This document shows positions 1,076 to 25,805 of a DNA stretch of 32,000 nt, in pieces. The DNA is from Pseudodesulfovibrio mercurii (GTDB taxonomy: Bacteria; Desulfobacterota; Desulfovibrionia; Desulfovibrionales; Desulfovibrionaceae), in assembly GCF_000189295.2 (NCBI RefSeq), contig NC_016803.1, positions 1,530,001-1,562,000 on the forward strand. The letters run 5' to 3'. Within the stretch, counting starts at the first letter, position 1. Every line of letters begins with the position of its first letter. The translations under genes were made by a program, and so were the position numbers. The notes under the pieces were generated by a model that ran no database searches, was not told the DNA's origin, and was given only the letters and a program-made list of their open reading frames with translations.

Positions 1076-2430
<1,355 letters not shown>

Positions 2431-2431
<1 letters not shown>

Positions 2432-7086: not shown

Positions 7087-7134
7087 CGACCGCAACCGTT
7101 CCTGGTCCACCTCCGTGACAGGGGCGTCCAGAGT

Positions 7135-7172
7135 CCCCGGTCCCCCCAAAGTCCTTCCCGGGGGGGCCGGGG
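7135..7172 (+). terminator. 13-bp GC-rich hairpin after the AOR gene (candidate terminator/attenuator)
   Basis: ccccggtcccccc (7135-7147) pairs with ggggggg ccgggg (7160-7172), with one G-U pair and a 12-nt loop. A TTTT run occurs only about 10 nt downstream. Confidence 0.35.
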
Positions 7173-7222
7173 CATATCCGGTTTTAACAGACCGCCCGCA
7201 TGTTTTACGATAAGGAGAAAGG

Positions 7223-8620: not shown

Positions 8621-8684
8621 GGGGCCGCCCCGAAGCAACACCGCGATCGAATACGCCAACCGCCCAAGGGGAAAGAAATTATTG

Positions 8685-8699
8685 CGGCAAGTGCCTTGA
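8685..8699 (+). promoter_or_regulatory. Candidate sigma54-type promoter upstream of the alcohol dehydrogenase (imperfect -12)
   Basis: CGGCAAGTGCCTTGA has GG and TTG at consensus spacing, but the -24 T and -12 C are not conserved (TTGA rather than TTGC). Confidence 0.3.
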
Positions 8700-8743
8700 T
8701 AGAGGATGCGCAAGACGATACAATCGAACCAAAGGACAATACC

Positions 8744-9886: not shown

Positions 9887-9887
9887 C

Positions 9888-11120
9888 ATGACCCAGGGAA
9901 ACGGCGGCGACACCGGCGGCAATGCCCGGCTCGAAGACATCATCGGCATCGAGTCCATCAAGCTCGGGTTCTTCAAGGAAGTCCAGAAGACCATCAACGA
10001 GCTCAAGGCCTCGAACATCGAACTCGAGCAGAAGCGGCGCGACGTCCAGGACATCCTCAACGGCATCCCGGACGTGGTCGCCGTAGTCTCTCCGGACTAC
10101 CGCGTGCTCTCGGTCAACAGCGCCTTTTCCGAGACCTACGGCAAGCGCGACCCCCTGGGGCTGCCCTGCTACAAGGTCTTCAAGAACTCGAAGCGGCCGT
10201 GCTCGCCCTGCCCCCTGGTCATGGCCAGGGAGGAGGGCCGCAAGGTCTGCCGCCAACTGCAGATCATGAACGTGGACGGCGAGAACCGGCAGATCGAGTG
10301 CTCGGCCGCGCTCATGCCCGGCACCGGGGACTCGCCGGGCAAGGTCCTGCTCCTGCACCGCGACGTGACCGTGGAGAAGCAGTACCAGGCCAAGTATTTC
10401 CAGGCCGAACGCATGGCCACCGTGGGCGTGCTGGCCGAAGGCGTGGCCCACGAGATCAACAACCCCCTGACCTCCATCCGGGGGTTCGCCGAGGCCCTGT
10501 ACGGCCACCTGGACCGGCTGGGCGTCTGCCTCAAGGACGGCGAGCCGTGCACGGACCTGCTCGAAACCTTCGAGGAGTACCTGGACATAGTGCTCAAGGA
10601 GTGCAACCGCTGCTCCGAGATCGTCCACAACCTGCTCAGCTTCGGCCACCGCGACGTGCGCGCCATGTCCATCGTCAACATCAACAACATCATCCTCAAC
10701 TGCCTGAAGCTGCTCCACCCCAGGCTGTCCATCCTGCCGTCCGGGATCATCAAGCTCGCCCTGTCCGAGGAGGAGCCCTGCGTCATGGGCCACCCCGGCG
10801 AACTGATGCAGGTGGCCCTGAACCTGATCCTCAACGCCCTGTACGAGGTGCGCGACATCGGGACCATCGACATCTCCACGCGGGTGAAGGGGAGGATGGT
10901 TCTGCTGCGGGTCTCGGACACGGGCGGCGGCTTCGCGCCCGAAGACGTGGACAAGCTCTTCGAGCCGTTCTTCACCACCAAACCGGCGGGCCAGGGGATC
11001 GGCATCGGCCTGTCCACCTGCTACAACATCATCATGAAGCACGGCGGCGAGATCACCGCCTCGAGCGAACCCGGCGAGGGCGCGGTCTTCGAGGTCATAT
11101 TGCCCCTGCTTGAGGAATGA
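9888..11120 (+). CDS. Cytoplasmic PAS-domain sensor histidine kinase, 410 aa
   Basis: PAS-like ILNGIPDVVAVVSPDYRVLSVNSAF. H-box EGVAHEINNPL. ATPase boxes DTGGGF and GIGIGLS. No TM segment. The ATG lies 1 nt after the ADH stop. Confidence 0.85.
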   Translation: MTQGNGGDTGGNARLEDIIGIESIKLGFFKEVQKTINELKASNIELEQKRRDVQDILNGIPDVVAVVSPDYRVLSVNSAFSETYGKRDPLGLPCYKVFKNSKRPCSPCPLVMAREEGRKVCRQLQIMNVDGENRQIECSAALMPGTGDSPGKVLLLHRDVTVEKQYQAKYFQAERMATVGVLAEGVAHEINNPLTSIRGFAEALYGHLDRLGVCLKDGEPCTDLLETFEEYLDIVLKECNRCSEIVHNLLSFGHRDVRAMSIVNINNIILNCLKLLHPRLSILPSGIIKLALSEEEPCVMGHPGELMQVALNLILNALYEVRDIGTIDISTRVKGRMVLLRVSDTGGGFAPEDVDKLFEPFFTTKPAGQGIGIGLSTCYNIIMKHGGEITASSEPGEGAVFEVILPLLEE

Positions 11121-11124
11121 GCCC

Positions 11125-12471
11125 ATGGCGAACACGGAGATCAACCGCGTCCTGGTGGTGGACGACGAGCCCTTCATCCGCAAGCTGGCCGAACGCGAGC
11201 TGGCCCTGCCCGGCCGGGAGGTGACCACCGCGGCCACGGCGGCCCAGGCCCAGCGCCTGGTCAAGCGGGGCGACTTCGACGTCATCCTGCTGGACGTCCG
11301 GCTGCCCGACGGCAACGGCAACCGGCTGCTGGAGCATTTCCGCGAGACCCTGCCCGACGTGGAGGTCATCATGATCACCGGCTACTCCGAGGTGGACAGC
11401 GCGGTGGAGGCCATGAAGGCCGGGGCCTACGACTACGTGACCAAGCCCTTTTCCCTGGACCGCATGAACCTGCTCATCGACCGGGCCTACCAGCGCCGGG
11501 TCATGCAGCGGGAGCTGCGCACCCTGCGCCGGGACAAGGGGGGCAAGCCTCGGCAGTGGTTCATCGGGACCTCGGCGCCCATGCGCGAGATCGCCTTCCT
11601 GGTGGACAAGGTCGCGCCCACGGACGCGCCCGTGCTCATCACCGGCGAGAGCGGCGTGGGCAAGAACGTCATCGTCAACGTTCTGCACGCCCGCAGCTCG
11701 CGGGCGAGCATGCCACTCATCGTCAAAAACTGCGGCGCCTTCAACAAGGAGCTGCTGCGCAGCGAGCTGTTCGGCTACTGCAAGGGCGCGTTCACCGGGG
11801 CCGAGACCACCCAGGAGGGCGTCCTGGCCCAGGCGGACAAGGGCACCCTGTTCTTCGACGAGGTGGGCGAGCTGCCCCTGGAGGTCCAGGCCATGCTCCT
11901 GCGCGTGTTCGAGTCCCAGCGGTACCGCCGCGTGGGCGACCGCGAGGAGCGCTCGGTGGACGTGCGCTTCCTGTTCGCCACCAACCGCGACCTGGCCGCG
12001 GAGGTGGAGGCTGGCCGCTTCCACGAGGCCCTGTACCACCGCCTCAACGTCTTCCGCATCGACATCCCGCCCCTGCGGGAACGCAAGGAGGACATCCCCA
12101 TGCTCGTGGGGCACTTCCTGGAGAACCTCTACCCGGACCGGCCGCCCTACCGGCTGTCCAAGCGGGCCGGGGAGAGCATGATCGCCTACGACTGGCCGGG
12201 CAACGTCCGCGAACTGCGCAACGTCATCGAGCGGGGCATCATCCTGGCCGAGAACGACCTGATCACCACCAAGTGCCTGCCCTCGGACATAGCCCGCTCC
12301 CTGGACGAGGGCGAGTGCTGCGCCCCGCTGCCCACCCTGGACCAGCAGGAGAAGCGCTACATCCTCCGGGTCATGGAGCACGTGGGCCAGAACCGCACCC
12401 AGGCGGCACGCATCCTGGGCATCGGACGCAAGACCCTGTACCGCAAGCTGCGCGCCTTCGAGGAGAGCTAG
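11125..12471 (+). CDS. sigma54-dependent response regulator (NtrC family), 448 aa
   Basis: ORF 11110..12471. ATG 11125 has GAGGA 8 nt upstream. Acceptor context FDVILLDVRLPDGNG; Walker A GESGVGKN; GAFTGA present; HTH AARILGIGRKTLYRKL. Confidence 0.9.
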   Translation: MANTEINRVLVVDDEPFIRKLAERELALPGREVTTAATAAQAQRLVKRGDFDVILLDVRLPDGNGNRLLEHFRETLPDVEVIMITGYSEVDSAVEAMKAGAYDYVTKPFSLDRMNLLIDRAYQRRVMQRELRTLRRDKGGKPRQWFIGTSAPMREIAFLVDKVAPTDAPVLITGESGVGKNVIVNVLHARSSRASMPLIVKNCGAFNKELLRSELFGYCKGAFTGAETTQEGVLAQADKGTLFFDEVGELPLEVQAMLLRVFESQRYRRVGDREERSVDVRFLFATNRDLAAEVEAGRFHEALYHRLNVFRIDIPPLRERKEDIPMLVGHFLENLYPDRPPYRLSKRAGESMIAYDWPGNVRELRNVIERGIILAENDLITTKCLPSDIARSLDEGECCAPLPTLDQQEKRYILRVMEHVGQNRTQAARILGIGRKTLYRKLRAFEES

Positions 12472-12599: not shown

Positions 12600-13898
12600 T
12601 CACAACCCCACGTTCTTGAGGTCTTCGCCGAGGTATTCCCGCTCGTTTTCCCCCAGGATGCCGAGGGAGAGGCAGATGAGCGTCCACAGGTGGACCACGG
12701 GGAACCCGGCCTCGTAATGTTCGCTCAGATCATGAATCTGAGAATGGCAGTTGTGGCACGGGGCGATGCAGTAGTCGGCCTTGGTCCTGAGGATCTGGTT
12801 CAGCTTGATCCTCCCGTAGGCCCGCCGCTCCTCGGCGAACCCGGATTGCAGGAACCCGCCCCCGCCGCCGCAACAATAGTTGTTCGACTTGTTCGGCCAC
12901 ATGTCGATGAAGTTCTCCTCGCCGACCACGGACCTGACCACGAAGCGCAGGTCCTCGGCCACGGGGTCGTGCAGGGACTTGCGGACCAGCTGGCAGGGGT
13001 CCTGGACCGTGAAGGTCACGCCCAGGTCCTTGTTCCAGTCCGAATTGACCGGCAGTTTCCCCTCGCGAATCCACCTGGCGTACAGGCGGATGATGGACTC
13101 CATCTCGAAGCTGTGTTCGACGTTGAACCGTTGCAGTCCGGCCCGGACCGCGTAGAATTCGTGTCCTCACTCCGTATTGAGCCAGACCTTGCACCCGAGG
13201 TCCTCGACCGCCGCGGCCTTGTTGCGGACCACCTTCTCCCAGGCCTCGTCGTCGGCCAGGAACATGCAGTAGTTTTCGGCGGCCCACCCCTTGGTGGAGT
13301 AGGTCCAGTCCGCGCCCACCAGGTTGAGGATCTTCCACAGCGGGACCATCTCGTCCGGCTCGGTGACCGGCTCGCGCGAGTTCTGGTTCAGGAAGTAGTA
13401 GGCCCCCTTGCGGTCGATGGAGACCTCGAGGTTCTCCATGCCCGGCTGGGTCTCGCGGACCTCTTCGAGCACGTCCTCGACCACGAACTTGAAGTCCTCG
13501 CTGGACGCGCCCATGGCGCTGTTGCCCGGCGTGGACAGGGCCTGCTCGCAGGAGCCGAGGATGCCCTTGGGGCGCTCCTCCCTGGGCCAGGACTGGCGGC
13601 AGTGGTAGACCAGCTGCGGGATGTCCACCTCCATGGGGCAGGCGTGGACGCAGCGCCGGCACATGGTGCACAGCCAGACCCACGGCGTGGACCGGATCTC
13701 CTCCTCCTGGCCGTAGAGGGCCAGGCGCAGGAATTTGCGAGGGTCCATGCCGTGCATGCCCGTGGCCGGGCAGCCCGAGGAACAGGCCCCGCAGGCCAGG
13801 CACATGTTCAGGTTGCCGCCCTCGGGCAGCAGTTCCTTGACCTTGTCCACCAATGCCGAGTGTTTCGGTTCGATCAGCAGTTGTGCCGCTTCGCCCAT
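12600..13898 (-). CDS. HdrD/DsrK-family Fe-S oxidoreductase (2x[4Fe-4S] ferredoxin domain + CCG domain), probable selenoprotein with in-frame UGA at 13167-13169
   Basis: ORFs 13167..13898 and 12600..13103 are in the same frame (offset 567 nt). Read-through gives ...KVWLNTE-[TGA]-GHEFYAVRAGLQRFNVEHSFEMESIIRLY... The N-terminal piece has CLACGACSSGCP and CTMCRRCVHACP. The C-terminal piece has the CCG motif DPC-X39-CCGGG...CHNC. AAAGGAG SD precedes ATG 13898. Confidence 0.75.
13133..13151 (-). promoter_or_regulatory. Candidate bacterial SECIS hairpin downstream of the in-frame UGA
   Basis: The mRNA reads UGA-GGACACGAAUUCUAC-GCGGUCCGGGCCGGACUGC. This forms a 7-8 bp stem (one G-U pair) with a G-rich apical loop. 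The stem starts 15 nt after UGA and the loop about 23 nt after it. Confidence 0.5.
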
Positions 13899-14001: not shown

Positions 14002-14907
14002 TCAGGCCAGGGCCTCGGCCTCGACCACCTGGCCGGTCTGGTCGTACATCAGGCCGCAGCGCAGGTCGAAGTGCCGGTTGACGCTCATGGTCGGACACGG
14101 CGCGTTCAGGGCCACCTGGGTCACGGTGGAGCCCAGGAAGGCCTTTTCGGGATCGCGTTCCTTGGAGTGGTGGGCCATGATCAGCAGGTCCGCGTCGCCC
14201 TGGCGGGCCGTGCGCAGGATCTCCATGGCCGGTTCACCCATCTCCGCCCGGAAGGCGCAGTCGGCGATGCCGTCGAGGCGCTTGCCGTAGGCGTCCTCCA
14301 GCCGGGCCGTGCATTCGCTGCGGCCCGGTCCACCGGGCTCGGCCACGTGCATGACCACCAGGTTGGCCTTGTACTGACGGGCCATCTGCCCGCCGTAGGA
14401 CACGGCGCATTCGGCCTGGTCCGAGAAGTCCGTGGCGACCACGATGTTCGAGAACAGCGGCTCGCGGCAGGATATCTCCTTGTGAACGATCATGACCGGA
14501 CAGCGGGCCCGCTGGCTGACGCGCTCGAGCGTGCTGCCGGCCATGCCCCACATCTTGGCCCGCTTCTCCTCGTATTCCTTGGTGTGCGGCCCCATGACGA
14601 TGAGGTCCGAGTTCTTGGCCCGGGCCAGGCGCAGCAGTTCGTTGTGCGGGATGCCCGGCACGACCACGATCTGCGCGCTGGGGAGTTCCTTCAGGTATTC
14701 GTCGTACATCTCCCGGATCTTGTCCCCGAGCTGCTCGGTCTCGCCCGAGGGCGCGAGGTGTTCTATGGAGCCCCAGCCCTGTTCCATCCCGGCCACGTGG
14801 GTCAGGTAGAGCTTGGACTCGAACTTGACGGCGAACTCCACCGCCGCCTTGACCGCACAGGCATCGATGCCGGTGGGCGTGACGCCCACGATGATGTCCT
14901 TAAACAT
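14002..14907 (-). CDS. Tandem-domain universal stress protein (2x UspA), 301 aa
   Basis: Two USP repeats: MFKDIIVGVTPTG...LIVMGPH...GSTLERVSQRARCPVMIV and NIVVATDFS...LLIMAHHS...LGSTVTQVALNAPCPTMSV. An SD-like AAGGAAAGGGGG precedes the ATG, which lies 24 nt after the hdrB stop. Confidence 0.85.
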   Translation of the reverse strand: MFKDIIVGVTPTGIDACAVKAAVEFAVKFESKLYLTHVAGMEQGWGSIEHLAPSGETEQLGDKIREMYDEYLKELPSAQIVVVPGIPHNELLRLARAKNSDLIVMGPHTKEYEEKRAKMWGMAGSTLERVSQRARCPVMIVHKEISCREPLFSNIVVATDFSDQAECAVSYGGQMARQYKANLVVMHVAEPGGPGRSECTARLEDAYGKRLDGIADCAFRAEMGEPAMEILRTARQGDADLLIMAHHSKERDPEKAFLGSTVTQVALNAPCPTMSVNRHFDLRCGLMYDQTGQVVEAEALA

Positions 14908-14931: not shown

Positions 14932-15861
14932 TTATCCGTTCAAACCCGCCGTTTCTTCCTCGTTTTCCTCCGCCATGGGCGCGGGCTCGGCCCACGCCCT
15001 GGTTGCAATGTCCCGTCTGACCTTCGGCGTCATGGTCAGGTTGTCCGCCAGCCGCATGTCCCGCTCGGTCAGCCCCATGGCCAGCCCCATGAGCTGGGTC
15101 AGGTAGAGCACGGGCACGGGCGTGCCGCCCGCCTTGCGCACCCTGGCCTGGTAGGCCTCCAGGTTCATCTGGCAGAGCGGGCAGACCGTGACGATGGCGT
15201 CGGCCCCGGCCGCGTCGTTCAGGATCTCGGCCACGGAGCGGATGGCCACCTCGGGGTGGCCGACCATGAGCGAGGCCCCGCAGCAGCGGTTGGCCATGTC
15301 CCAGTGGTGGACTTCGCCGCCCATGGCCTCGATGAACGGCTCCATGGAGACCGGCCTGCCAGGCTCGTCGAAGACCGGGTAGGGGCGCAGGATCTGGCAG
15401 CCGTAGTAGGGCGCGACCCGCATGCCCTGAAGCCCGTCGGTGATCTTCTGCTCCACGATCTTGGCGCCCACGTCGTTCTTGAGCACGTCGAGCAGGTGGC
15501 GGACCTTCACGTCGCCCCGGTAGTGCAGGCCGGAGGCGGCCAGGACCTCGTTGACCCGGCCGTGCAGATGCCGGTCGCCGACCACCTCGCGGTTGACCTT
15601 GAACAGGTTGAGGTAGCAGGCCGAACACGGGGCGAGGACGTCCAGGCCGCCCAGTTCCTGCTCCGCGATGGCCAGGTTGCGCGCGGGCAGGACGTGGTTC
15701 ATGAGCTTGCTGACCGGTTCGGCCGCGCTGGCCCCGCAGCAGGTCCAGTCCGGAATCTCGACCAGCTCGCAGCCGAGCCGCTCCAGGACCAGCCTCGTCG
15801 AGACGTCGAACTCGCGGGCGCTCTCGGTCAGCGAACATCCGGGATAATAGGCGTACTTCAT
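14932..15861 (-). CDS. hdrB: Heterodisulfide reductase subunit B (two CCG domains), 309 aa
   Basis: Real part of ORF 14932..16488, starting at MKYAYYPGCSL (ATG 15861). Motifs: DWTCCGAS...CSACYLNL and YYGCQIL...NRCCGAS...CPLCQMNL. An ATGA overlap joins it to hdrC. Confidence 0.9.
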   Translation of the reverse strand: MKYAYYPGCSLTESAREFDVSTRLVLERLGCELVEIPDWTCCGASAAEPVSKLMNHVLPARNLAIAEQELGGLDVLAPCSACYLNLFKVNREVVGDRHLHGRVNEVLAASGLHYRGDVKVRHLLDVLKNDVGAKIVEQKITDGLQGMRVAPYYGCQILRPYPVFDEPGRPVSMEPFIEAMGGEVHHWDMANRCCGASLMVGHPEVAIRSVAEILNDAAGADAIVTVCPLCQMNLEAYQARVRKAGGTPVPVLYLTQLMGLAMGLTERDMRLADNLTMTPKVRRDIATRAWAEPAPMAEENEEETAGLNG

Positions 15862-16427
15862 GACAGTCCCTCCATCTCGCGGGCCTTGGCGAACAGGGGC
15901 CGGAGCACGTCGCCCCGCCCCTTGCCCGGCATGTGCACCTTGCCCTTGCCGAGCATGCGCACGCCCAGCGGCAGGTAGGAGAGCGGCAGCATGGGGTCGC
16001 GGGCCTTGAGGAAGTACCGCTGCATCATGCTCGTCTCCTGGACCCGGCCGTGGACCTCCACGTCGTCCATGAAGGCCCGGTAGAAGGCCAGGTTCCTGCG
16101 CGCGTGGGGGCCGTCCGCGATCCCGGCCAGCCGCTTCAGGGCGGCCATGGCCGAGGTCAGCTTGAGCCCGCGCGGGCAGCGCAGCGTGCACATGTAGCAG
16201 GCCGAGCACATCCAGAAGGTCTTGCTTTCCAGTATCTTGTCGAGCATGCCGAACTGGATCATCCGCCACATGGCCCTCGGGGTGATGTCCATGGCGTGCC
16301 AGTTGGGACAGGAGGCCGTGCAGGTGCCGCACTGCATGCACGCCCCCACGGTTTCCCTCAACTCCTTGAGCACCAGTTGGTCGGCCTCCGAGGCCGGGCT
16401 CCACGTTTCCCTGACAGCTCCGTTCAT
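15858..16427 (-). CDS. hdrC: Heterodisulfide reductase subunit C (2x[4Fe-4S]), 189 aa
   Basis: CMQCGTCTASCP and CSACYMCTLRCP motifs. Size and position upstream of hdrB fit HdrC. Confidence 0.85.
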   Translation of the reverse strand: MNGAVRETWSPASEADQLVLKELRETVGACMQCGTCTASCPNWHAMDITPRAMWRMIQFGMLDKILESKTFWMCSACYMCTLRCPRGLKLTSAMAALKRLAGIADGPHARRNLAFYRAFMDDVEVHGRVQETSMMQRYFLKARDPMLPLSYLPLGVRMLGKGKVHMPGKGRGDVLRPLFAKAREMEGLS

Positions 16428-16462: not shown

Positions 16463-19400
16463 CTAGGCCGGTTCCTCCAGGGCCGCATCGATGACGGACA
16501 GCATCGGCCCGTCGTGGAACCCCTTGAGCACGGTGGCGCTGTTGGGGCAGACCGCGGCGCAGGCGCCGCACCCCTGGCAGAGAATCTCGTCCACGATGAT
16601 CTTCTCCTCGGTGGTGTCCACGGCCCGGGCCCCGTAGGGACAAGCGCTGACGCAGGCCTGGCACAGGGAGCACAGGGAGTGGCGCACCGTGGCCACCACG
16701 GTCTCGCGGGGGATCTTCTCGGCGTTGAGGATGCGCAGGGCCCGCTGGGCCGCCGCCTTGGCCGTGGCCACGGTCTCGCGCATGCGCCGGGGACCCAGGG
16801 CGATGCCGCACATGTAGATGCCCTGCTTGAGGAAATCCACGGGCCGCCACTTGAAGTCCGCCTCGCGGTAGAAGCCGTGCTCGTCCACCTCCACGTCGAA
16901 GACCTCGAGCAGGTCCTCCACGTCGTTGGGCTCGATGCCGCTGGCCAGGGACAGGATGTCCGGACGCAGCTCCACCTGGCCCCGCAGGATCGGGTCGTAC
17001 CCCCGGACCACGGGCCTGCCCTCCTCGAAGGTCACCTGGGGCACGGTCAGGTGGTCGTAGCGGATGAAGATGGCCCCCGCCTTGCGCGCCCTGGTGTAGT
17101 AGGTCTCCAGGAACCCCTGGGTCATGATGTCGCGGTAGAAGACGTAGATGGGCAGGTCCGGGTTGCGCTCCTTGAGGGCGAGCACGTTCTTGAGCATCTC
17201 CGGGCAGCAGACCTTGCTGCAATAGGTCCGGTCCTCGCCGTCGTTGCGCCAGCACTGGATCATGACCACCGAGGAGAGGGCCTTGGCGTCGAGCCGGCCG
17301 GTGGCCAGCTGCTCCTCCAGGGCCAGGTGGGTCATGACCGACTTGTGCACACACAGGCCGGACTCGTAGACCTTGGCCTCGTGCCCGCCCGTGGCCAGGA
17401 TGGTCACCGCGTGCTCCAGGGGGAAGACCCCCCGCGGGCTGGCGATGGCCGAGCGGAAGTGGCCCGCGCTGCCCCTTGAGAGGACCACGCGCGAATCCTT
17501 GAAGACCTTGATGTTCGGGTGCTTCTCCACCTGGGCGATGAGCTCCTCCATGTAGGCGTGCGGGTCGGTGCCGTCCAGCTGGGTATGCAGCCGCATGGCC
17601 GTGCCGCCGAGCTCCTCCTCGGCCTCCACCAGGCAGACCCCGTAGCCCTGGTCCGCGATGGACATGGCGGCGACCATGCCCGCCAGGCCGCCGCCGACCA
17701 CCAGGGCCGAGCGGACCACGTCCACGGTCACGGCCGGGCCGGACGGGTCCGCGCCCTGCAACCGGGCCACGGCCGTGGCCAGGGAGGCGTATATCTCGCG
17801 CTCCACGCGGCCGTCGCCGTCCCCGCCCACCGTGGCGGTGTAGATGTCCACCACGTCCATGAGCGCGGGGTTCAGGCCGATGGTCCGGCCCAGCTCCTTG
17901 AGCCTGGGGATGTAGGCGTAGGGCATGCACGCCCCGATGAGAATACGGTTGGGCTTGTACTCCAGGGCCGCCGCCTCGATGTCCTTCCAGCCCTGCGGGG
18001 TGCAGGCGCTGCCCACGCGCATGACCTTGCAGACCGAATGGACCCGCTGCATGCGCTCGGCCAGGTCGTCCAGGTCCACGGCCTGCTCCAGGGTCGGGCA
18101 GGAGGTGCAGACCGTGACCAGGGTCCGCGCCGGGTCCCTGGACACGTCCGGGTAGGACGGTTCGGGCTCGCCCTCGATGCCCGCCAGGACGTCGTAGGCC
18201 TTGATGATCCGCGAGGCGGCCTGGGCCGCGGCCCCGGCGTGGATGACCGACTCGGAGATGTCGCGGGGTTCGCCGAAGGCCCCGGCCGCGAACACGCCCA
18301 CGCGACTGGTCCGCTCGGGCCGGTACGGCAGGGTGTCCACGAAGCCCCACTCGTTCAGGTCCACGCCCATGGTCAGGGCGAACTTGTCCGTGCCCCTGGG
18401 CGGCCGCGCCCCGGCGGCCAGGACGACCATGTCGAATTCCTCGGCAATCAGCTCGCCCGCGTCGTTCAGATATTCGAGCTTCAGCCCCTTGCCGTCGTCG
18501 GCGGCCAGGACCGTGTGCGGACGGCTGCGCACGAAGCGCACGCCGTGCTTCTTCTCGGCATCGACCCGGTAGCGCTGGTACTCCTTGCCCGAGGTGCGCA
18601 TGTCCATGTAGAAGATGGTCGCATCCAGGCCCTCGCCCGCGACCTTCTTGGCCAGCAGGGCCTCCTTGATGGAGAACATGCAGCAGATGCCGGAACAGAA
18701 GTCCGCATGCTTGTGCACGTCGCGCGAGCCCACGCATTGCAGCCAGGCGATGCGTCTGACCGGCTCGCCGTCGGATCGTTGCAGCCTGCCGCCCGTGGGC
18801 CCGGTGCCCGAGAGCAGCCGCTCGAACTCCACGGCGGTGAGCACGCCCGGATGGGCGTAGGCCCAGACGTCCGCCCCGCCCTCGGGGTCCATGTCCGGGG
18901 TGTAGCAGTCGAAGCCCCCGGCCAGGACCACGGCCCCGACCTCGAGCTTGACCGTGGAGTCCGAGAGGATGCGCACGTAGAGCTTGTCGAGCCAGGGCAC
19001 GAAGCGCTTCCGCCTCAGCGGCTTGACCAGGTATTCGCGCGCGCCCTGCATGACCAGGTCCGCGGCCGCCTCCTCGCTCCCCGGATCGGCCAGGACGACC
19101 ACGGGCAGGTCGGGCCTGAGCTCCCTGGCGCGGGTCAGGACCCGTTCCGCATCCATGTCGTTCAGCCCCATGCCCAGCAGGAGCAGCCCCACGGGCTCCT
19201 CCGAGGCGAGCCGGTCCACGGCCTCGCGTCCGCTCTGCGCGAAGTGCAGCGGGAAGTTCTGCTCCTTGAGCTCCGCCTCCATCATCGCCTTCACGTCCGG
19301 GTCGCGGTCGGCCACCAGGATGTGGAAGTCCCTGCGATCCTCGAACTTGAAGTCGATGGCCCCGGTGGGGCAGGCCTCGTGGCACTTCCAGCAGCGGATG

Positions 19401-19891
19401 CAGTTGTCCAGGTCCAGCACGTAGTGGTTGGGGATGGCGTAGGGCACGGGCAGGTGCACGGCCGTGCGCTCGGTCAGCCCGGCGTTGAACTCGCTGGGCA
19501 CGCGCACCGGGCAGACCTCGGCGCACCGGCCGCAGCTGATGCACTTGGCCGGGTCGATGAGCGTGGACTTGCGCTTGAGGGAGAGCAGGAACTTGCCCGG
19601 TTCGCCCTCCAGGGTCTCCACCTCGGTGGACAGCATGAGGTCGATGTTGTCGTGGAACAGCCCCTTGCGCAGACAGTACTGGCTGGAGGAGTCGCGCGAC
19701 ATCAGCGGGAGCATGCGGCACATGCCGCAGTGGTCCGTGGGGAACTGGTGGTCCAGCTGGGCGAGTATCCCGCCGTGGCTGGGCCTGCGGTCGATGAGGG
19801 CCACCTTGTGCCCGGTGACGGCCAGGTCCAGGGCCGCGCGGATGCCGCCGATGCCCGCTCCGACCACCAATGCGCCGTATTGCTTTCTCAT
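16463..19891 (-). CDS. Giant double HdrA-like flavo-iron-sulfur protein (QmoA-like half with inserted receiver-like domain + complete HdrA-like half), 1142 aa
   Basis: ORF 16463..19903. ATG 19891 is preferred because the TTG GAG GAC codons supply the GGAGGA SD. Half 1: GALVVGAGIGG, FPTDHCGMCRMLP, and an inserted ferredoxin CISCGRCAEVCP...CIRCWKCHEACP. The mid-protein segment LVTVCTSCPT...SACTPQG...LIGACMPYAY mirrors the HdrA N-domain. Half 2: SALVVGGGLAGM...CSKVCC..., ending with C-terminal CSLCQACVSACP...CQGCGACAAVCP. Confidence 0.85.
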   Translation of the reverse strand: MRKQYGALVVGAGIGGIRAALDLAVTGHKVALIDRRPSHGGILAQLDHQFPTDHCGMCRMLPLMSRDSSSQYCLRKGLFHDNIDLMLSTEVETLEGEPGKFLLSLKRKSTLIDPAKCISCGRCAEVCPVRVPSEFNAGLTERTAVHLPVPYAIPNHYVLDLDNCIRCWKCHEACPTGAIDFKFEDRRDFHILVADRDPDVKAMMEAELKEQNFPLHFAQSGREAVDRLASEEPVGLLLLGMGLNDMDAERVLTRARELRPDLPVVVLADPGSEEAAADLVMQGAREYLVKPLRRKRFVPWLDKLYVRILSDSTVKLEVGAVVLAGGFDCYTPDMDPEGGADVWAYAHPGVLTAVEFERLLSGTGPTGGRLQRSDGEPVRRIAWLQCVGSRDVHKHADFCSGICCMFSIKEALLAKKVAGEGLDATIFYMDMRTSGKEYQRYRVDAEKKHGVRFVRSRPHTVLAADDGKGLKLEYLNDAGELIAEEFDMVVLAAGARPPRGTDKFALTMGVDLNEWGFVDTLPYRPERTSRVGVFAAGAFGEPRDISESVIHAGAAAQAASRIIKAYDVLAGIEGEPEPSYPDVSRDPARTLVTVCTSCPTLEQAVDLDDLAERMQRVHSVCKVMRVGSACTPQGWKDIEAAALEYKPNRILIGACMPYAYIPRLKELGRTIGLNPALMDVVDIYTATVGGDGDGRVEREIYASLATAVARLQGADPSGPAVTVDVVRSALVVGGGLAGMVAAMSIADQGYGVCLVEAEEELGGTAMRLHTQLDGTDPHAYMEELIAQVEKHPNIKVFKDSRVVLSRGSAGHFRSAIASPRGVFPLEHAVTILATGGHEAKVYESGLCVHKSVMTHLALEEQLATGRLDAKALSSVVMIQCWRNDGEDRTYCSKVCCPEMLKNVLALKERNPDLPIYVFYRDIMTQGFLETYYTRARKAGAIFIRYDHLTVPQVTFEEGRPVVRGYDPILRGQVELRPDILSLASGIEPNDVEDLLEVFDVEVDEHGFYREADFKWRPVDFLKQGIYMCGIALGPRRMRETVATAKAAAQRALRILNAEKIPRETVVATVRHSLCSLCQACVSACPYGARAVDTTEEKIIVDEILCQGCGACAAVCPNSATVLKGFHDGPMLSVIDAALEEPA
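18968..19327 (-). other. CheY-like receiver (pseudo-receiver) domain inserted in the HdrA-like protein
   Basis: ORF-track residues ~193-312 read FHILVADRDPD...VGLLLLGMGLNDMDA...LPVVVLADPGS...GAREYLVKPL. This is a receiver-like b1/b3/b4/b5 pattern with the conserved Lys (KPL). Gly (codon 19172-19174) sits where the phospho-acceptor Asp is expected, and Ala where Thr/Ser is expected. Confidence 0.6.
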
Positions 19892-19907
19892 TTTGTCCTC
19901 CAATGAA

Positions 19908-21038
19908 TCAGGCCATGTGCGAAACCGCGTCCTGGAACTCGTCTTCCTTGAAGACCGACAGCGGCGGGGCCTCGTCCAGGCTGCGGCCCGGCACGTAGTC
20001 GAAACTCTCCTGGGTGCGCGCGGCCACGGTGCGGAACAGCTCCATGACCGGGATGTCGTTGGGGCAGGCGTTGGAACACTGGCCGCAGCCCACGCAGGCC
20101 ATGGACATGTGGGCCATGCGCGTGAGGTGGTAGAAGACCGTGTCCGTGGGCATCTTCAGCGAGCCCTTGCGCTTGGCCCAGCCCATGTACTGCCACGGCT
20201 TGTGCTCGAACACGTCGGTGTTGAAGACGCACTCCTTGCAGTAGCAGACCGGGCAGGCCACCCGGCAGTTGTAGCAGTTGACGCAGGAGGCCAGGTACTC
20301 GGCCAGGTCGGTCAGGGTGCCGGTGACCGCCCGGGTGCGCTCGAACATCTCGTCCCGGTTGGCGGTGCGCACCTCGATCATGGCCTTGAGCGCCTCGTCG
20401 CGGCCGCCGCCCGCCTCGGCCTCGGGCAGCCCCAGGCTGAGGAGCAGGGACTCGCCGCGCGGGCTGGAGGCCGTGACCGGAATGTGCCCGGACAGGTCCG
20501 CCCCGGCCAGGCCGAGGACGATGTCCGCGTTCTCCGGGGCCGGATGCTCGCAGGCCCGGCAGGCCGAGGCGATGTCCGCCCCGCCGTTGCCCACCTGCCT
20601 GTGGAAGTCCATGGTGGCCTCGAAGGGATCGCGGTCGCCCAGAAACGCCTTGTACCCGGTGTTGTCGAAGGCCCCCATGCAGTCCAGGCCGACCAGGATG
20701 ATGTCGTCGATGGAACCCTGGTTGAGCTTGACCAGCTCCACGAAGGCGCGGATTTCGCACGGCCGCAGGACCGCGGCGATGCGCTCGCCCGACTGCCCTC
20801 TGGTGAGCCGGGCCAGGAGCTTGGCGCTGTTCATGGGAAATGCCGGGGCCAGCGGGTCCGCTCCGGAGAGCTGCTCCGGGTCCGTGACCAGGGTCGGCAT
20901 GGGGATGCCCTTGCCGAACAGGTGCATGGGCACCAGCACCCCGCCGATGCTCTCGTTCTCCATCAGGCCGCGCAGGAACCCCTGCACCGCCGCAATCGGG
21001 TTGCCCCCGTCGATCTGGATCTTCGCCGTGGTTGCCAT
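19908..21038 (-). CDS. FrhB/FdhB-like (F420 hydrogenase/dehydrogenase beta-family) Fe-S flavoprotein, 376 aa
   Basis: N-terminal pattern IGGVLVPMH...AAVLRPCEIRAFVEL...ILVGLDCMG. C-terminal Cys clusters CVNCYNCRVACPVCYC and CVGCGQCSNACP. The family call is by eye. Confidence 0.6.
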   Translation of the reverse strand: MATTAKIQIDGGNPIAAVQGFLRGLMENESIGGVLVPMHLFGKGIPMPTLVTDPEQLSGADPLAPAFPMNSAKLLARLTRGQSGERIAAVLRPCEIRAFVELVKLNQGSIDDIILVGLDCMGAFDNTGYKAFLGDRDPFEATMDFHRQVGNGGADIASACRACEHPAPENADIVLGLAGADLSGHIPVTASSPRGESLLLSLGLPEAEAGGGRDEALKAMIEVRTANRDEMFERTRAVTGTLTDLAEYLASCVNCYNCRVACPVCYCKECVFNTDVFEHKPWQYMGWAKRKGSLKMPTDTVFYHLTRMAHMSMACVGCGQCSNACPNDIPVMELFRTVAARTQESFDYVPGRSLDEAPPLSVFKEDEFQDAVSHMA

Positions 21039-21055: not shown

Positions 21056-21481
21056 CTAGATCACGGCCATGGAACGCGCTTCCATGGGGCCGAGTTCTCT
21101 GATTTCGTTGATGAAGTTATTGACCGTCGCGGCAAACTCGTTGCCTTCGCTCGCCCCCACCCAGGTCAGCTTGACCCGCTCCTTTTCGATGCCGAACTGG
21201 GGCAGAATCTCGTTCAGGAGCTTGACCCGCCGCCGGGCCTTGTAGTTGCCGTTGATGTAGTGGCAGTCACCGGGATGGCAGCCCGAGACCAGGACCCCGT
21301 CCGCCCCGGAGAGCAGGGACTTGACGATGTACTTGGGGTCCACCATGCCGGTGCACATCATGCGCACCATGCGCAGGTTGGGCTGCTGGATCATGCGCGA
21401 GGTCCCGGCCAGGTCCGCCGCCGTGAAGGTGCACCAGTTGCAGACAAAGGCCAGGATGGTCGGTTCGAACTCGTTACTCAT
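21056..21481 (-). CDS. mvhD: MvhD/FlxD-like (methyl-viologen-reducing hydrogenase delta subunit family) protein, 141 aa
   Basis: ILAFVCNWCTFTAADLAG...RMMCTG...VLVSGCHPGDCHY is the characteristic MvhD Cys pattern. It overlaps the hdrA end by 8 nt. Confidence 0.85.
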   Translation of the reverse strand: MSNEFEPTILAFVCNWCTFTAADLAGTSRMIQQPNLRMVRMMCTGMVDPKYIVKSLLSGADGVLVSGCHPGDCHYINGNYKARRRVKLLNEILPQFGIEKERVKLTWVGASEGNEFAATVNNFINEIRELGPMEARSMAVI

Positions 21482-23510
21482 GACGTGCCTCCTCGACGAC
21501 CCGCGTAACCGGGATGTCCACCGGATGCGCCCCGCCCGCCTCGGGCGGCAGCCAGCCGGGGACCATCCCTAGCAGTCCGTCTATTTCGTTGAATATCTGC
21601 GTCTCGTTGAAGTGCTTGATCTGGGCCGCGCCGCTCGGGCAGTACCCGGCGCAGGAGCCGCATCCCTTGCACATGGCCTCGTTGATCACGGCCACGTTGC
21701 GCCGCTCGTCGAACTCGATGGCCGAGTAGGCGCACAGTCCCACGCAGACCCGGCAGCCCACGCAGATGTCCGGGTTGATCCAGGACGTGGTCGGGGAGAT
21801 GGAGACCGTGCCCTTGGCCGCCAGGGCCAGGGCCTGGGCCGCGCCGCCCGAGGCGTGGGAGACCGCGTCCGGGATGTCCTTGGGTCCCTGGCAGGTGCCG
21901 GCCAGGAAGACCCCGTCCGTGGCAGTGGAGACCGGCCCGAGCTTGGGGTGCTCTTCCAGGAAGAAGCCGTCCGAGCCCTGGGCGATGCCGAAGACGCGGG
22001 CCACCTCGGTGGCGTCGGGCCGGGGCTCCATGGCCGTGCACAGGATGACCATGTCCACGGGCAGGCGCACGTTGACCCCGAGCAGGGTGTCCTCGCCCAC
22101 CACCACGAGCCTGCCGTCCTCCTCCACCACCTCGGCGGGCCGCCCCCGGATGAAGGTCACGCCCTCGTCCTGGACCCGCCGGTAGAACTCCTCGTACCCC
22201 TTCCCGAAGCAACGCATGTCGATGTAGAAATTGTAGACCTTGGTGTCGTGGCCGACCTTGTCCTTGATCAGATGGTCGTACTTCAGCGCGTACATGCAGC
22301 AGGTCCGCGAACAGTACTCATGGTAGTTCTTGTCGCGGGAGCCCACGCAGTGGATGATGGCCACGGACTCGGGCTTCCTGCCGTTCTTCATGACGATCTT
22401 GCCCTCGGTGGGGCCGACCGCGTTGTTCAGCCGCTCGAACTGGAGGGCGGTGTAGACCTCGTCGTACCGGCCGAAGCCGTATTCGCGCATGGGCGTCGGG
22501 TCCATGGTGTCGTAGCCCGTGGCCAGGACGATGGAACCCACGTGGAAGACCTCGCGGGACTCCTTCATGTCGTAGTCGATGGCCCCGGTGGGACAAATTT
22601 TCTGACACACGCCGCACTTGCCCTTGGTGATCATCTTGCAGGCGTCGCCGTCGATGACCGGGGTGTTGGGCACGGCCTGGGGCGAGTTGCGGTAGATGGC
22701 CTTGCGGAAACCCAACCCCTCGTTGAACTCGCTGATGGCCTTGGTCGGGCACTTCTCCAGGCAGGCCCCGCAGCCGGTGCAGACGTCTTCCTTCACGTAG
22801 CGCGGCTTGTGCCGGACCGTGACCGTGTAGTTGCCCACGAACCCGGTGACCTCCTCCACCTCGGACCAGGTCATCAGGTTGATGTTCGGCTCCTGGCTGA
22901 CCGCGACCATCTTGGGCGTTGAGATACAGGCCGCGCAGTCGAGCGTGGGGAAGGTCTTGTCGAACTGGGCCATATGCCCGCCGATGGACGGGCTCTTCTC
23001 CACCAGGTGGACCTTGTGCCCGGACTTGGCGATGTCGAGCGCGGCCTGGATGCCAGCGATGCCCGCGCCCACGACCATGACGTCGGGCAGGACCCCGACC
23101 TCGCGCGAGTAGAGCTTCTGGTGGTCGGCCACCCGCTCCACCGCCGCCTCGACGATGTGCCGGGCCTTGGCCGTGGCCTCATCGGGATCGGCCGTGGTCC
23201 AGGAGCAGTGCTCGCGGATGCAGCAGTGCTGCATGAGGTACGGATTGAGCCCGGCCCGGGCGCACGCCTTCTGGAAGGTCTTCTCGTGCAGCCGGGGCGA
23301 ACAGGAGGCGACCACCACGCGATCCAGGCCGTACTGCCGGATGTCCCGGATGATCATCTCCTGGCCGGGGTCCGAGCACATGAACTGGTAGTCGCGGGAG
23401 ACGACCACGTCCTTGAGACCGCCCGCAAACTCGGCCACCCCCTCGCAGTCCACCTTGCCCGCGATGTTGGACCCGCAATGACAGACATAGACACCGATCT
23501 TTCTGGACAT
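21474..23510 (-). CDS. hdrA: Heterodisulfide reductase subunit A, 678 aa
   Basis: ORF 21474..23528. ATG 23510 has GGAGGA 6 nt upstream. N-domain IGVYVCHCGSNIAG; FAD fold VMVVGAGIAGIQAALD; FPTLDCAACI; inserted ferredoxin CTGCGACLEKCP...CGVCQKICP; C-terminal CVGCRVCVGLC...CKGCGSCAGYCP. Confidence 0.9.
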   Translation of the reverse strand: MSRKIGVYVCHCGSNIAGKVDCEGVAEFAGGLKDVVVSRDYQFMCSDPGQEMIIRDIRQYGLDRVVVASCSPRLHEKTFQKACARAGLNPYLMQHCCIREHCSWTTADPDEATAKARHIVEAAVERVADHQKLYSREVGVLPDVMVVGAGIAGIQAALDIAKSGHKVHLVEKSPSIGGHMAQFDKTFPTLDCAACISTPKMVAVSQEPNINLMTWSEVEEVTGFVGNYTVTVRHKPRYVKEDVCTGCGACLEKCPTKAISEFNEGLGFRKAIYRNSPQAVPNTPVIDGDACKMITKGKCGVCQKICPTGAIDYDMKESREVFHVGSIVLATGYDTMDPTPMREYGFGRYDEVYTALQFERLNNAVGPTEGKIVMKNGRKPESVAIIHCVGSRDKNYHEYCSRTCCMYALKYDHLIKDKVGHDTKVYNFYIDMRCFGKGYEEFYRRVQDEGVTFIRGRPAEVVEEDGRLVVVGEDTLLGVNVRLPVDMVILCTAMEPRPDATEVARVFGIAQGSDGFFLEEHPKLGPVSTATDGVFLAGTCQGPKDIPDAVSHASGGAAQALALAAKGTVSISPTTSWINPDICVGCRVCVGLCAYSAIEFDERRNVAVINEAMCKGCGSCAGYCPSGAAQIKHFNETQIFNEIDGLLGMVPGWLPPEAGGAHPVDIPVTRVVEEARHE

Positions 23511-23535
23511 GTCCCATCCTCCATGCAATCCGTGG

Positions 23536-23805
23536 TCAACGGGTGGGTTTGCCGCTGGTCAGTTCCAGGGTCAGTTCGCCCACCAGCTTCTTGAGTTCCT
23601 CGTTCTCGGCCGCCAGCTCCATGTCGTTCGGAGCCAGGGGCGGCTTCTCGAACACGCGGTAGCTGTTCTCCAGAAAATGCCCCCGCCACTTGTAGTACTG
23701 GCCCGGCCGCAGATCATTGGACCGGCAGAGATCGTTGACGCACTCGCCCATCAATCCCGCCAGCACGATCCTGGCCTTGGTCTTGGAATCCCACTTTCTT
23801 CTCAT
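23536..23805 (-). CDS. Solo IS3-family OrfA-like HTH protein (transposase_8-like), 89 aa, with no orfB
   Basis: MRRKWDSKTKARIVLAGLMGECVNDLCRSNDLRPGQYYKWRGHFLE...NEELKKLVGELTLEL resembles IS3/IS911 OrfA (HTH + leucine zipper). hdrA starts 25 nt downstream and no DDE orfB or terminal repeats were seen. Confidence 0.6.
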   Translation of the reverse strand: MRRKWDSKTKARIVLAGLMGECVNDLCRSNDLRPGQYYKWRGHFLENSYRVFEKPPLAPNDMELAAENEELKKLVGELTLELTSGKPTR

Positions 23806-24002
23806 CCGCCGAACCTCCTGCCGATCTTCCCGGTCTCGCCACTGCCGCCGTTCTCCCGAGGAGAGCCGGTGAGTCCGGTCACCTCCTCCGCCGTCGGTCG
23901 TCCCACCCTGCTTTCATGGCCAACCATCCGAATTGGAAGACGAAATCTACAAACATCAGCATGGACTTCCAGTCTGTGCGGGCAACTCACTTTCTCTCCT
24001 AG

Positions 24003-24017
24003 TCAAAATGCGTGCCG
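24003..24017 (-). promoter_or_regulatory. Candidate sigma54 (-24/-12) promoter for the OrfA-like/hdr cluster (imperfect -12)
   Basis: The minus strand reads CGGCACGCATTTTGA. GGCACG is perfect and the spacing is consensus, but the -12 is TTGA instead of TTGC. It lies about 200 nt upstream of ATG 23805. Confidence 0.4.
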
Positions 24018-24263: not shown

Positions 24264-24395
24264 TACCAGAGCGGCGAGGGCGGAAATCCAGAGACATTTT
24301 TTCAAGGATTTCACAGACCAAAAGGCATTGCCCACGAACCGAAAATTATGCTACGTGTGAGCCATCATTCATGCTGCAAGGGGAGGGGGCACCCC

Positions 24396-25805
24396 ATGAC
24401 AGACATTCTCATCGTGGACGGCGATGCGGTCTTTGCCGAACGGCTGGCCGCTTCGCTTCTGGAGCACGGCTTTCCGACCAATGCCTGCGACTCGCTGTCC
24501 AAGGCGCTGGGCATCCTGCACACCGGCACGTTCAAGGCGGTCCTGCTCGGGGACGATCTGCCCGATGGGGACGTGGTGGACTATCTGGCCCTTATCCGCG
24601 AGGTACCTTCCTTTCCCGAGGCGATCATCATCACCCGCAGGCGGGACCCGGACATGGCGGAAAGGGCCATCCAGTCCGGGGCCTGGAACTACATCACCAA
24701 GCCCCTGAACCTGCAACGGCTCCTGGTCCTGCTGGAGCGGGTCATCACCTACCACACCAAGGTCCACTCCGGGTTCTGCCCCGTGTCGCTCAGGCGCGAG
24801 GGGATCATCGGCAACAGCCGGGCCATGCTCTCCTGCCTGGACGCCGTGGCCCAGGCCGCCACCAGCGACATCAACGTCCTGCTCATCGGCGAGACCGGCA
24901 CGGGCAAGGAGCTCTTCGCCCGGTCCATCCACAAGAACTCCGCCCGCCGCAACAAGCCCTTCGTGGTCGTGGACTGTGCGGCCATGCCCGACACCCTGGC
25001 CGAGAGCCTGCTCTTCGGCCACGCGCGGGGCGCGTTCACCAGCGCGGACGCCCCCACCGTGGGCCTGGTCAAGCAGGCGGACCAGGGCACCCTGTTCCTG
25101 GACGAGGTGGGCGAGCTGCCCATGCCCCTGCAAAAGGTCTTCCTGCGCGTGCTCGAGGGCCGCAGCTTCCGGCCCGTGGGCTCCGCCCGCGAGATCACCA
25201 GCGACTTCCGGCTGCTGGCGGCCACCAACCGGGACCTGGAGGAAATGGTCGAGCAGGGCGAATTCCGGCGCGACCTCTATTTCCGGCTGCGCGGCATGCA
25301 CATCCGCCTGCCCGCTCTGCGCGACATCGCCGAGGACATCAACGAGATGACCTGCAAGTTCATCCAGCGCCACTGCGAAAAACTCAAACTGTCCACCAAG
25401 GGGTTCTCCCCGGATTTCCTGGACGCGCTCATGCACTACGACTGGCCGGGCAACGTCCGGGAGTTGATCCACACCCTGGAGCAGGCCCTGTCCCGGGCGG
25501 GCAACGACGCGGTCCTCTTCCCCCGCCACCTGCCCAAGGCCATCCGCGCCCAGATCGCCCGCCGGTCCATGAGGCCCGAGCACCAGGCCGCCAAACCGGC
25601 CCACCACCACGAGATCGCGCCGCCGGACGCCTTTCCGGACATGCGCACCTACCGCGACCAGCAGATCGCCCGGAGCGAGGAGCGCTACCTCATGAACCTG
25701 ATGGAGATCACCGGCGGCGACATGGCCGCCTCCTGCACCGTCTCCGGTCTGTCGCGGGCCCGCCTTTACGCCCTGCTCAAGCGCTACAACGTTTCCCGCA
25801 AGTGA
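24396..25805 (+). CDS. Orphan sigma54-dependent activator with atypical (probably non-phosphorylatable) receiver domain, 469 aa
   Basis: ORF 24348..25805. ATG 24396 follows GGGAGGGGG. The receiver reads ILIVDGDAVF...FKAVLLGDDLPDGD, with Gly (24549-24551) at the acceptor position by alignment to the two neighbouring regulators. Walker A GETGTGKE; GAFTSA instead of GAFTGA; C-terminal HTH SGLSRARLYALLKRY. No adjacent kinase. Confidence 0.85.
   Translation: MTDILIVDGDAVFAERLAASLLEHGFPTNACDSLSKALGILHTGTFKAVLLGDDLPDGDVVDYLALIREVPSFPEAIIITRRRDPDMAERAIQSGAWNYITKPLNLQRLLVLLERVITYHTKVHSGFCPVSLRREGIIGNSRAMLSCLDAVAQAATSDINVLLIGETGTGKELFARSIHKNSARRNKPFVVVDCAAMPDTLAESLLFGHARGAFTSADAPTVGLVKQADQGTLFLDEVGELPMPLQKVFLRVLEGRSFRPVGSAREITSDFRLLAATNRDLEEMVEQGEFRRDLYFRLRGMHIRLPALRDIAEDINEMTCKFIQRHCEKLKLSTKGFSPDFLDALMHYDWPGNVRELIHTLEQALSRAGNDAVLFPRHLPKAIRAQIARRSMRPEHQAAKPAHHHEIAPPDAFPDMRTYRDQQIARSEERYLMNLMEITGGDMAASCTVSGLSRARLYALLKRYNVSRK

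Follow-up and report, generated by a model that had tools for sequence, protein, structure and literature searches.

Why does a flavin-based redox enzyme carry a receiver domain in the middle of its chain, and what can such a domain do when its phosphorylation site is gone? These questions are raised by a gene in a 32,000-nucleotide stretch of the Pseudodesulfovibrio mercurii genome (contig NC_016803.1, positions 1,530,001 to 1,562,000 of the forward strand; the whole stretch is called the window below). The gene, at 16463..19891 of the window, encodes a tandem HdrA-like protein with a CheY-like receiver embedded in its first half. The answer proposed here is that this receiver probably arose by decay of a genuine one, probably phosphorylatable, of the kind still found in a sister clade.

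Hdr-type flavin-based bifurcating complexes are central to energy conservation in methanogens, sulfate reducers and syntrophs. In the literature consulted, their control is described at the level of gene expression and of conformational gating within the complex. A receiver in a flavoprotein, at the hinge of its low-potential exit, points to a direct post-translational switch.

A receiver embedded in a tandem HdrA protein

The open reading frame lies on the minus strand and encodes 1142 amino acids counted from an ATG. A possible alternative start, the TTG at 19903, is located four codons 5' of it. The product is 100% identical to EGB14598.1/WP_014322026.1 of P. mercurii (formerly Desulfovibrio sp. 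ND132), whose automatically assigned GenBank product name already flags the combination of a receiver with an HdrA-type protein. Given this name and the 127 species-level loci described below, the domain combination is not new to databases. No characterised example and no description of a receiver-bearing HdrA was found in full-text literature searches, and the initial annotation had likewise known of none. The parts of the protein are arranged as follows (AF2, AlphaFold2; FAD, flavin adenine dinucleotide; TM, template modelling score).

16463..19891, minus strand: whole open reading frame, tandem HdrA-like flavo-iron-sulfur protein with embedded receiver (WP_014322026.1; Pfam, AF2, Foldseek)
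19577..19891, minus strand: module 1 FAD domain, first part (residues 1-105), with GAGIGG and FPTDHCGMC; aligns with HdrA 145-237 and neighbouring HdrA 151-240
19337..19576, minus strand: module 1 inserted ferredoxin (residues 106-185); Fer4 matches; aligns with HdrA 238-313
18959..19336, minus strand: pseudo-receiver (CheY-like), residues 186-311, with the Pfam match to residues 191-297 at 19001-19321 (Pfam, phmmer, AF2, Foldseek)
18182..18958, minus strand: module 1 FAD domain, remainder (residues 312-570); aligns with HdrA 316-511 and neighbouring HdrA 321-559
17747..18127, minus strand: HdrA N-terminal-type Cys domain (residues about 589-715); aligns with HdrA 7-99 and neighbouring HdrA 6-140
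16700..17716, minus strand: module 2 FAD domain (residues about 726-1064), GGGLAG fold, sHdrA-like (6TJR, E=6.5e-30; Foldseek TM 0.86)
16466..16699, minus strand: C-terminal two-cluster ferredoxin (residues 1065-1142), Fer4_7/Fer4_10 at 1072-1118; aligns with HdrA 516-634

The initial annotation had placed a receiver fold at about residues 190-315, and both profile searches and structure prediction recover it there. Pfam PF00072 (Response_reg) matches residues 191-297 with E=1.4e-11 and 44.9 bits (cut-off 30.2), and is the only profile match for the insert. A phmmer search against chains of the PDB matched 110 receiver chains, the best being PrrA, YycF, NtrC1, LuxO and AdeR at about 4e-8; the closest similarity is to NtrC-family receivers. 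In the full-length AF2 model, residues 191-310 form a clean (beta-alpha)5 unit. The segment modelled alone reaches a predicted local distance difference test score (pLDDT) of 91.2, and DSSP gives the (beta-alpha)5 pattern in both AF2 models. The 50 Foldseek matches listed from the PDB are all response-regulator receivers except 28tm_A, which is titled an uncharacterized Rossmann fold protein; the matches listed have TM 0.70-0.88 and a root-mean-square deviation of 1.3-5.8 A. A flavodoxin-like cofactor domain was considered and rejected, as no flavodoxin is among the Foldseek matches listed.

The place of the insertion can be read from alignments to archaeal HdrA (5ODC) and to the ordinary HdrA whose gene lies two genes upstream. 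Residues 6-184 correspond to HdrA 145-313, and residues 313-511 to HdrA 316-511. Therefore, the receiver takes up a junction that normal HdrA bridges with only 2-3 residues, precisely at the point of return from the inserted ferredoxin to the flavin domain. The short HdrA-type junction lacking a receiver reads DYDMKESREVFHVG. A common HdrA/Qmo linker was also rejected as an explanation of the segment, since the neighbouring HdrA and the archaeal HdrA structures go directly from the ferredoxin to the flavin domain.

The remainder of the protein is clearly of the HdrA type. The full-length AF2 model has a pLDDT of 85.5 and a predicted TM score (pTM) of 0.86, its top Foldseek matches are HdrA (8RVU, 5ODC and 7BKB), and HdrA is also the top sequence match. 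The GxGxxG FAD fold, which is thioredoxin-reductase-like, occurs twice, at residues 8-43 and 729-767. The motifs quoted in the initial annotation (GALVVGAGIGG, FPTDHCGMC and the two-cluster ferredoxin) are all present in the translation or the Fer4 matches. These Fer4 matches cover residues 112-131 and 116-179 of module 1, and the inserted ferredoxin has two four-Cys motifs (C117/120/123/127 and C164/167/170/174) that are invariant across the family. Invariant as well are the Cys of the cluster motif CVGSRD...C399..C403C404 in the rest of the module 1 FAD domain, and C595, C598, C630 and C655 of the N-terminal-type Cys domain. The module 2 FAD domain has C880/C891/C895/C896.

The second half had been described as a complete HdrA-like unit, which does not hold. 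Module 2 has no inserted ferredoxin and no FPTxDC motif: half 2 aligns to residues 6-234 and 349-653 of the neighbouring HdrA, with a gap against 235-348. The full HdrA domain set is found in neither unit, module 1 having only the inserted ferredoxin and module 2 only the N- and C-terminal domains. With no inserted ferredoxin in half 2, a single chain thus forms an asymmetric HdrA pseudo-dimer and does not contain two full units. A receiver without an acceptor Asp, grafted into an HdrA-type tandem flavoprotein, remains from the earlier description, while its complete second HdrA unit does not. The NCBIfam cut-offs for HdrA are not reached (612 bits versus 1100 for HdrA2, and 482-487 bits versus 1300-1400). 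An identity as HdrL was rejected, because HdrL joins HdrA to GltD and no Fer4_20/GltD match occurs in the window protein.

Compared with archaeal HdrA (5ODC, 7BKB, 8RVU), the window protein shares the FAD domain with FPTxDC and CxGSRD...C..CC motifs, the inserted and C-terminal ferredoxins, the N-terminal cluster domain, and a gene position beside MvhD, FdhB/ElpB-like and HdrBC genes. Unlike the HdrA of the Mvh-Hdr, Fdh-Hdr-Fmd and Elp-Hdr complexes, it has two flavin modules per chain but single copies of the N-terminal, inserted-ferredoxin and C-terminal domains, and it has a receiver after the inserted ferredoxin. To our knowledge, there is no coenzyme M or coenzyme B in P. mercurii. The flavin domain of module 2 matches the sHdrA of Hyphomicrobium denitrificans (6TJR) over its whole length, and both lack an inserted ferredoxin. 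However, sHdrA is a stand-alone protein of 349 residues, whereas module 2 has HdrA N- and C-terminal cluster domains on either side and is part of one chain with module 1. The HdrL of Desulfobacterium autotrophicum (PMC2702500) is also a large HdrA-derived fusion encoded beside MvhD, but it joins HdrA to a GltD-type NAD(P)H module that is absent from the window protein.

The phosphorylation site

The key residues of the receiver were placed by aligning it with solved receivers, with CheY and NtrC, and with the other members of the family. The reference positions below carry CheY numbering.

19304..19309, minus strand: acidic pair D12-D13, here Asp195 (kept) and Arg196 (second Asp lost)
19172..19174, minus strand: acceptor D57, here Gly240 (the codon translates to Gly)
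19088..19090, minus strand: Thr/Ser of T87, here Ala268
19022..19024, minus strand: K109, here Lys290, followed by Pro291 (P110)

In addition, Tyr287 stands at the position of Y106 and is kept. The alignments agree with the by-eye assignment of the initial annotation for the acceptor (Gly), the Thr/Ser position (Ala268) and the conserved Lys. The loss of D13 to Arg196 is a further defect, absent from that annotation. Asp247 is the non-acceptor Asp of the 'MDG' turn. The position of Pro291 is Pro in 119 of 119 homologues, and in 71 of the 73 loci of the residue census below; that of Lys290 is Lys in 95 of the 119. On these alignments, the window receiver is a degenerate pseudo-receiver that would not be phosphorylatable at the canonical site.

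A basic residue at the D13 position is also found in the CheY mutant D13K, which is constitutively active and non-phosphorylatable. By analogy, Arg196 may lock the window receiver in an on-like state.

Receivers are joined to enzymes elsewhere. Response regulators with enzymatic outputs include the CheB, PleD and RpfG types, and receiver-containing enzymes such as PorX and a Rhodopirellula adenylate cyclase are among the Foldseek matches. In these, as in the window protein, a receiver is covalently joined to an enzyme. Unlike the receivers of those proteins, the one in the window protein is internal, lying between domains of a redox enzyme and not at the N-terminus, and its phosphorylation residues are gone. 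A receiver that keeps its fold while its acceptor Asp has become Gly is also known from DVU0749 of D. vulgaris (PMC3333781), but pseudo-receivers of that type are stand-alone regulators or N-terminal domains of regulators.

Canonical and degenerate receivers in the family

The family was scanned with one genome per GTDB species; this gave 127 loci, and 80 of these were retrieved. With few exceptions they encode a protein of about 1150 amino acids with a receiver segment of 123-140 residues, which is 126 residues in the Pseudodesulfovibrio/Desulfomicrobium group. In three loci (L029, L055 and L079) the reading frame of the large subunit stops after 337-526 codons. MvhD and HdrB/HdrC are linked to the large subunit in 84 of 84 loci examined, wherever the flanks are long enough, and the conserved gene order is HdrA, MvhD, FdhB-like, large subunit, HdrC, HdrB, Usp (universal stress protein). 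The product of the gene is the large flavo-iron-sulfur subunit of an Hdr-type complex conserved in the Desulfobacterota.

In a census of the catalytic residues that covered 73 full-length loci, 18 had the fully canonical receiver (DD/D/T/A/Y/K/P). The acceptor position of the other 55 is Gly in 20, Asp in 28, and Ser or Ala in 7. The canonical loci belong to metagenome-assembled genomes labelled Syntrophobacterales, Syntrophobacteraceae, Desulfobacteraceae or 'Deltaproteobacteria'. Their receivers have NtrC-like motifs (ILVVDDE, LMLLDIKMPxMDG and VVMMTAYATVETAVEAMKxGALDYLxKPF) and a Pfam score of 109 bits, versus 45 bits in the window protein. This clade comprises at least 120 protein clusters, all with PF00072.

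In the Desulfovibrionales the site is damaged to different degrees. The D13 equivalent is lost in all of their loci but L013 and L052, which have Asp there. About 28 loci keep the acceptor Asp in a damaged pocket, D13 having been lost (typically to Pro) and T87 being usually lost too. The 20 loci with Gly at the acceptor position form the Pseudodesulfovibrio, Maridesulfovibrio and Desulfomicrobium group, which includes the window.

The two groups also differ in the genes that surround the large subunit. Operons of the canonical clade encode, on the same strand, a histidine kinase, a hybrid kinase of receiver-(PAS)-kinase structure, Usp and a single-domain receiver. This signalling module is found upstream in L061, L064, L065, L066, L068 and L070, downstream in L083 and L084, and in part in L072 and L081; its kinase genes lie, for example, at 547-2181 of L066 and 15173-18606 of L083. 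In tblastn searches with the proteins of the module, none adjoined a degenerate-receiver locus, except for one weak match to a single receiver domain (L035). Of the module the Desulfovibrionales retain only Usp, alongside a sigma-54 regulator, which lies divergently in nearly all of their loci and is often accompanied by a PAS kinase. The catalytic-residue states associate with operon-encoded kinases. The other members of the family are probably true enzyme-embedded response regulators.

The flavoprotein that neighbours the large subunit in the canonical clade is of the HdrL type, with a GltD NAD(P)H module. This matches the published cluster of Syntrophobacter fumaroxidans, which consists of Sfum_0824 (HdrL), 0823 (MvhD), 0822 (FdhB-like iron-sulfur protein) and 0821-0819 ('HdrABC') (PMC5947623). 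Its gene order (HdrL, MvhD, FdhB-like, 'HdrA', HdrBC) is that of the canonical-receiver clade. The products are abundant only when sulfate is available, and have been proposed to form an NADH/DsrC-linked confurcating complex (PMC5947623). The window operon differs in having a plain HdrA in place of HdrL, and PMC5947623 mentions no receiver.

Downstream of the operon, the canonical clade has genes for a TetR regulator, EtfB, EtfA and an HdrD-like iron-sulfur/CCG protein (L070 12108-16867; L066 13624-18429). Their position hints at a possible link to an electron-transferring flavoprotein.

Constraint on the receiver

Among close relatives, the ratio of non-synonymous to synonymous substitution rates (dN/dS) is 0.21-0.67 for the receiver and 0.08-0.36 for the rest of the protein. 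These values are rough, synonymous sites being saturated or biased in this high-GC lineage and dS undefined for one pair. Because dN/dS is 0.21-0.67 while dN is about twice that of the remaining protein, the data indicate that the receiver is under relaxed but real constraint, that is, purifying selection. None of the 73 full-length loci has a deletion or substantial shortening of the receiver.

The most conserved receiver positions among the 119 homologues are R250, R254, E257 and P260 in alpha-3, and W300, L301, D302, K303 and R307 in alpha-5. The RxxELRP stretch of alpha-3 is common to the receivers of the window type and those of the canonical clade, which suggests a conserved contact with the body of the enzyme.

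The operon and its neighbourhood

Across the family the operon order is HdrA (or HdrL), MvhD, FdhB-like, large receiver protein, HdrC and HdrB; in the window these genes lie on the minus strand, with HdrA first. The genes around the large subunit in the window are listed below (HTH, helix-turn-helix).

24348..25805, plus strand: sigma-54-dependent response regulator, divergent, syntenic in nearly all Desulfovibrionales loci
24002..24017, minus strand: sigma-54-like -24/-12 motif CGGCACGCATTTTGAC upstream of the operon (pattern scan)
23536..23805, minus strand: small HTH_Tnp_1 protein of 89 amino acids at the operon head (Pfam HTH_Tnp_1, E=2.2e-9)
21474..23528, minus strand: ordinary HdrA, 684 amino acids from TTG (ATG six codons in), without receiver insert (profiles, alignment)
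21056..21481, minus strand: MvhD, [2Fe-2S] connector subunit (FlpD, E=2e-52)
19908..21038, minus strand: FdhB/ElpB-like FAD/iron-sulfur subunit (FrhB_FdhB_C and dicluster motif)
15858..16427, minus strand: HdrC-like subunit (profile matches)
14932..15810, minus strand: HdrB-like subunit with two CCG domains (profile matches)
14002..14907, minus strand: tandem Usp, conserved operon end (profile, synteny)
12600..13898, minus strand: second pair of an HdrC-like (13167-13898) and a CCG-domain (12600-13103) protein (profiles, synteny)

Against the PDB, the FdhB-like subunit matches FdhB 7BKB_E at 9e-32 and 8RVU_E at 8e-29. In the Fdh-Hdr-Fmd and Elp-Hdr complexes, FdhB/ElpB and MvhD/ElpC make up the electron-donor arm (PMC12350162). 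The second HdrC-like/CCG pair, after Usp, is kept behind the operon in most Desulfovibrionales loci, and some loci have two such pairs.

The small gene at the head of the operon has the profile of a transposase component, but a transposase remnant upstream of hdrA was rejected. A small HTH gene has the same place and strand in 25 related loci, with 47-92% identity; it looks like a domesticated operon-head gene, not the remnant of an insertion sequence. In D. retbaense (L001 3187-4254) and D. africanus (L002 3173-4285), its place is taken by an extra FrhB-type gene before hdrA, which carries FrhB_FdhB_N and _C domains in both.

Of 53 related loci, 21 have a motif of the form GGCAC-N5-TTGA upstream of the operon, with a background of 0.006 hits per kb inside the gene. 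It is an unusual form, with TTGA for TTGC at -12, and its occurrences fall among loci L003, L005, L022-L031, L034 and L043-L056. A strict scan for TGGCAC-N5-TTGCW with at most two mismatches gave nothing upstream of the operon and no more sites than expected by chance.

Three sigma-54-dependent response regulators are encoded in the window, at 1076-4000 (minus strand), 11110-12471 (plus strand) and 24348-25805 (plus strand). The first has 974 amino acids, of which some 530 N-terminal residues before the receiver have no Pfam match. The second is the partner of the sole kinase in the window, a PAS histidine kinase at 9888-11120. Both belong to a co-directional cluster on the plus strand (4942-12471) that further encodes an aldehyde:ferredoxin oxidoreductase, a B12-binding radical SAM protein and an iron alcohol dehydrogenase. 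This cluster converges on the hdr operon and recalls the adh/hdr-flox regulon under DVU2394 of D. vulgaris (PMC3333781). Its kinase/regulator pair is kept in the closest relatives, L003 and L005; in D. africanus and D. retbaense no such cluster was observed at up to 8 kb from the gene.

What the receiver may do

The initial annotation suggested allosteric or protein-protein control of an electron-bifurcating module, which is a reasonable suggestion. A more specific course of events is proposed here, and is held to be the probable one, if by no great measure. In the ancestral enzyme the embedded receiver would have been phosphorylated, providing a post-translational switch through a phosphorelay. 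In the lineage of the window, the Desulfovibrionales, control by phosphorylation would then have decayed, with stepwise loss of the catalytic residues, and control moved to sigma-54 transcription. The window receiver would have been kept as a fixed structural or allosteric element. As such, it would hold the inserted ferredoxin in position or shield it, or else give a partner a face to dock on. In archaeal HdrA the inserted ferredoxin is the low-potential electron exit and the docking site of the polyferredoxin (PMC12350162). Because of this role, and because the insertion directly follows the inserted ferredoxin, the receiver is placed at the hinge of this exit domain.

Several points weigh against this course of events. 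About half of the Desulfovibrionales members keep the acceptor Asp, and phosphorylation may persist in some of them. Adjacent kinase genes occur in about 10 canonical loci; the others are too short or have only the sigma-54 pair (L073 and L075). The direction from canonical to degenerate is drawn from parsimony and not from a rooted tree, and the ferredoxin-positioning role from chain topology only. Finally, the doubled dN of the receiver speaks of relaxed constraint. A related and more tentative proposal concerns the sister clade, where it is conceivable that a His-Asp phosphorelay switches the Hdr bifurcating or confurcating complex at the inserted-ferredoxin hinge; the window protein would be a 'frozen' derivative of such an enzyme.

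Other explanations have to be set against the fixed element. The pseudo-receiver might signal without phosphorylation, through the PAS kinase, the sigma-54 regulator or Usp, either reporting the redox or occupancy state of the enzyme to gene expression or passing an external signal to its activity. Lys290-Pro291 and the Tyr at the Y106 position are retained, the receiver is closest to those of the NtrC family, nearly all Desulfovibrionales loci share the synteny of the sigma-54 regulator, which often has a PAS kinase beside it, and Usp is conserved in the operon in both clades. All this would fit such signalling. However, the nearest kinase (9888-11120) is part of a separate aor-adh operon on the other strand, with a regulator of its own, and the identity of the window receiver to the receiver of that regulator is only 27%, which leaves this explanation rather unlikely. 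Somewhat doubtful in another way is the idea that the receiver is simply a relic, a folded spacer that serves stability or assembly and has no regulatory or docking role. It would account for the loss of all phosphorylation chemistry, for the twofold faster evolution of the receiver compared with the remaining protein, and for the fraction of family members in which Pfam misses the domain. A spacer of this kind is nonetheless improbable, given a receiver that is not deleted or substantially shortened in any of the 73 full-length loci, that has dN/dS below 1, and whose alpha-3 and alpha-5 surface positions are invariant or nearly so across the family.

It could also be imagined that the receiver is modified or loaded at a non-canonical site, another Asp, Ser or Thr being phosphorylated, or a small ligand or cofactor being bound as in flavodoxin-like folds. 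Asp195 and Asp197 do remain near the pocket, and the receiver fold is related to that of flavodoxin. Yet the Foldseek matches listed are receivers apart from the one Rossmann entry, with no flavodoxin among them, the only profile match is Response_reg, and Asp247 belongs to the 'MDG' turn and is not an acceptor. Such a site is very improbable.

Implications for Hdr-type complexes

The loci of this family fall into three groups that amount to a natural experiment: intact receivers with kinases of their own, partly decayed receivers, and fully dead ones. P. mercurii ND132, whose receiver is one of the last, is genetically tractable. The published 'HdrABC/HdrL' complex of S. fumaroxidans may hold a regulatory domain that has been overlooked. 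Some Hdr-type redox enzymes may be switched directly by phosphorylation. If this is true, it would be the first case, as far as has been searched, of two-component signalling that gates flavin-based electron bifurcation.

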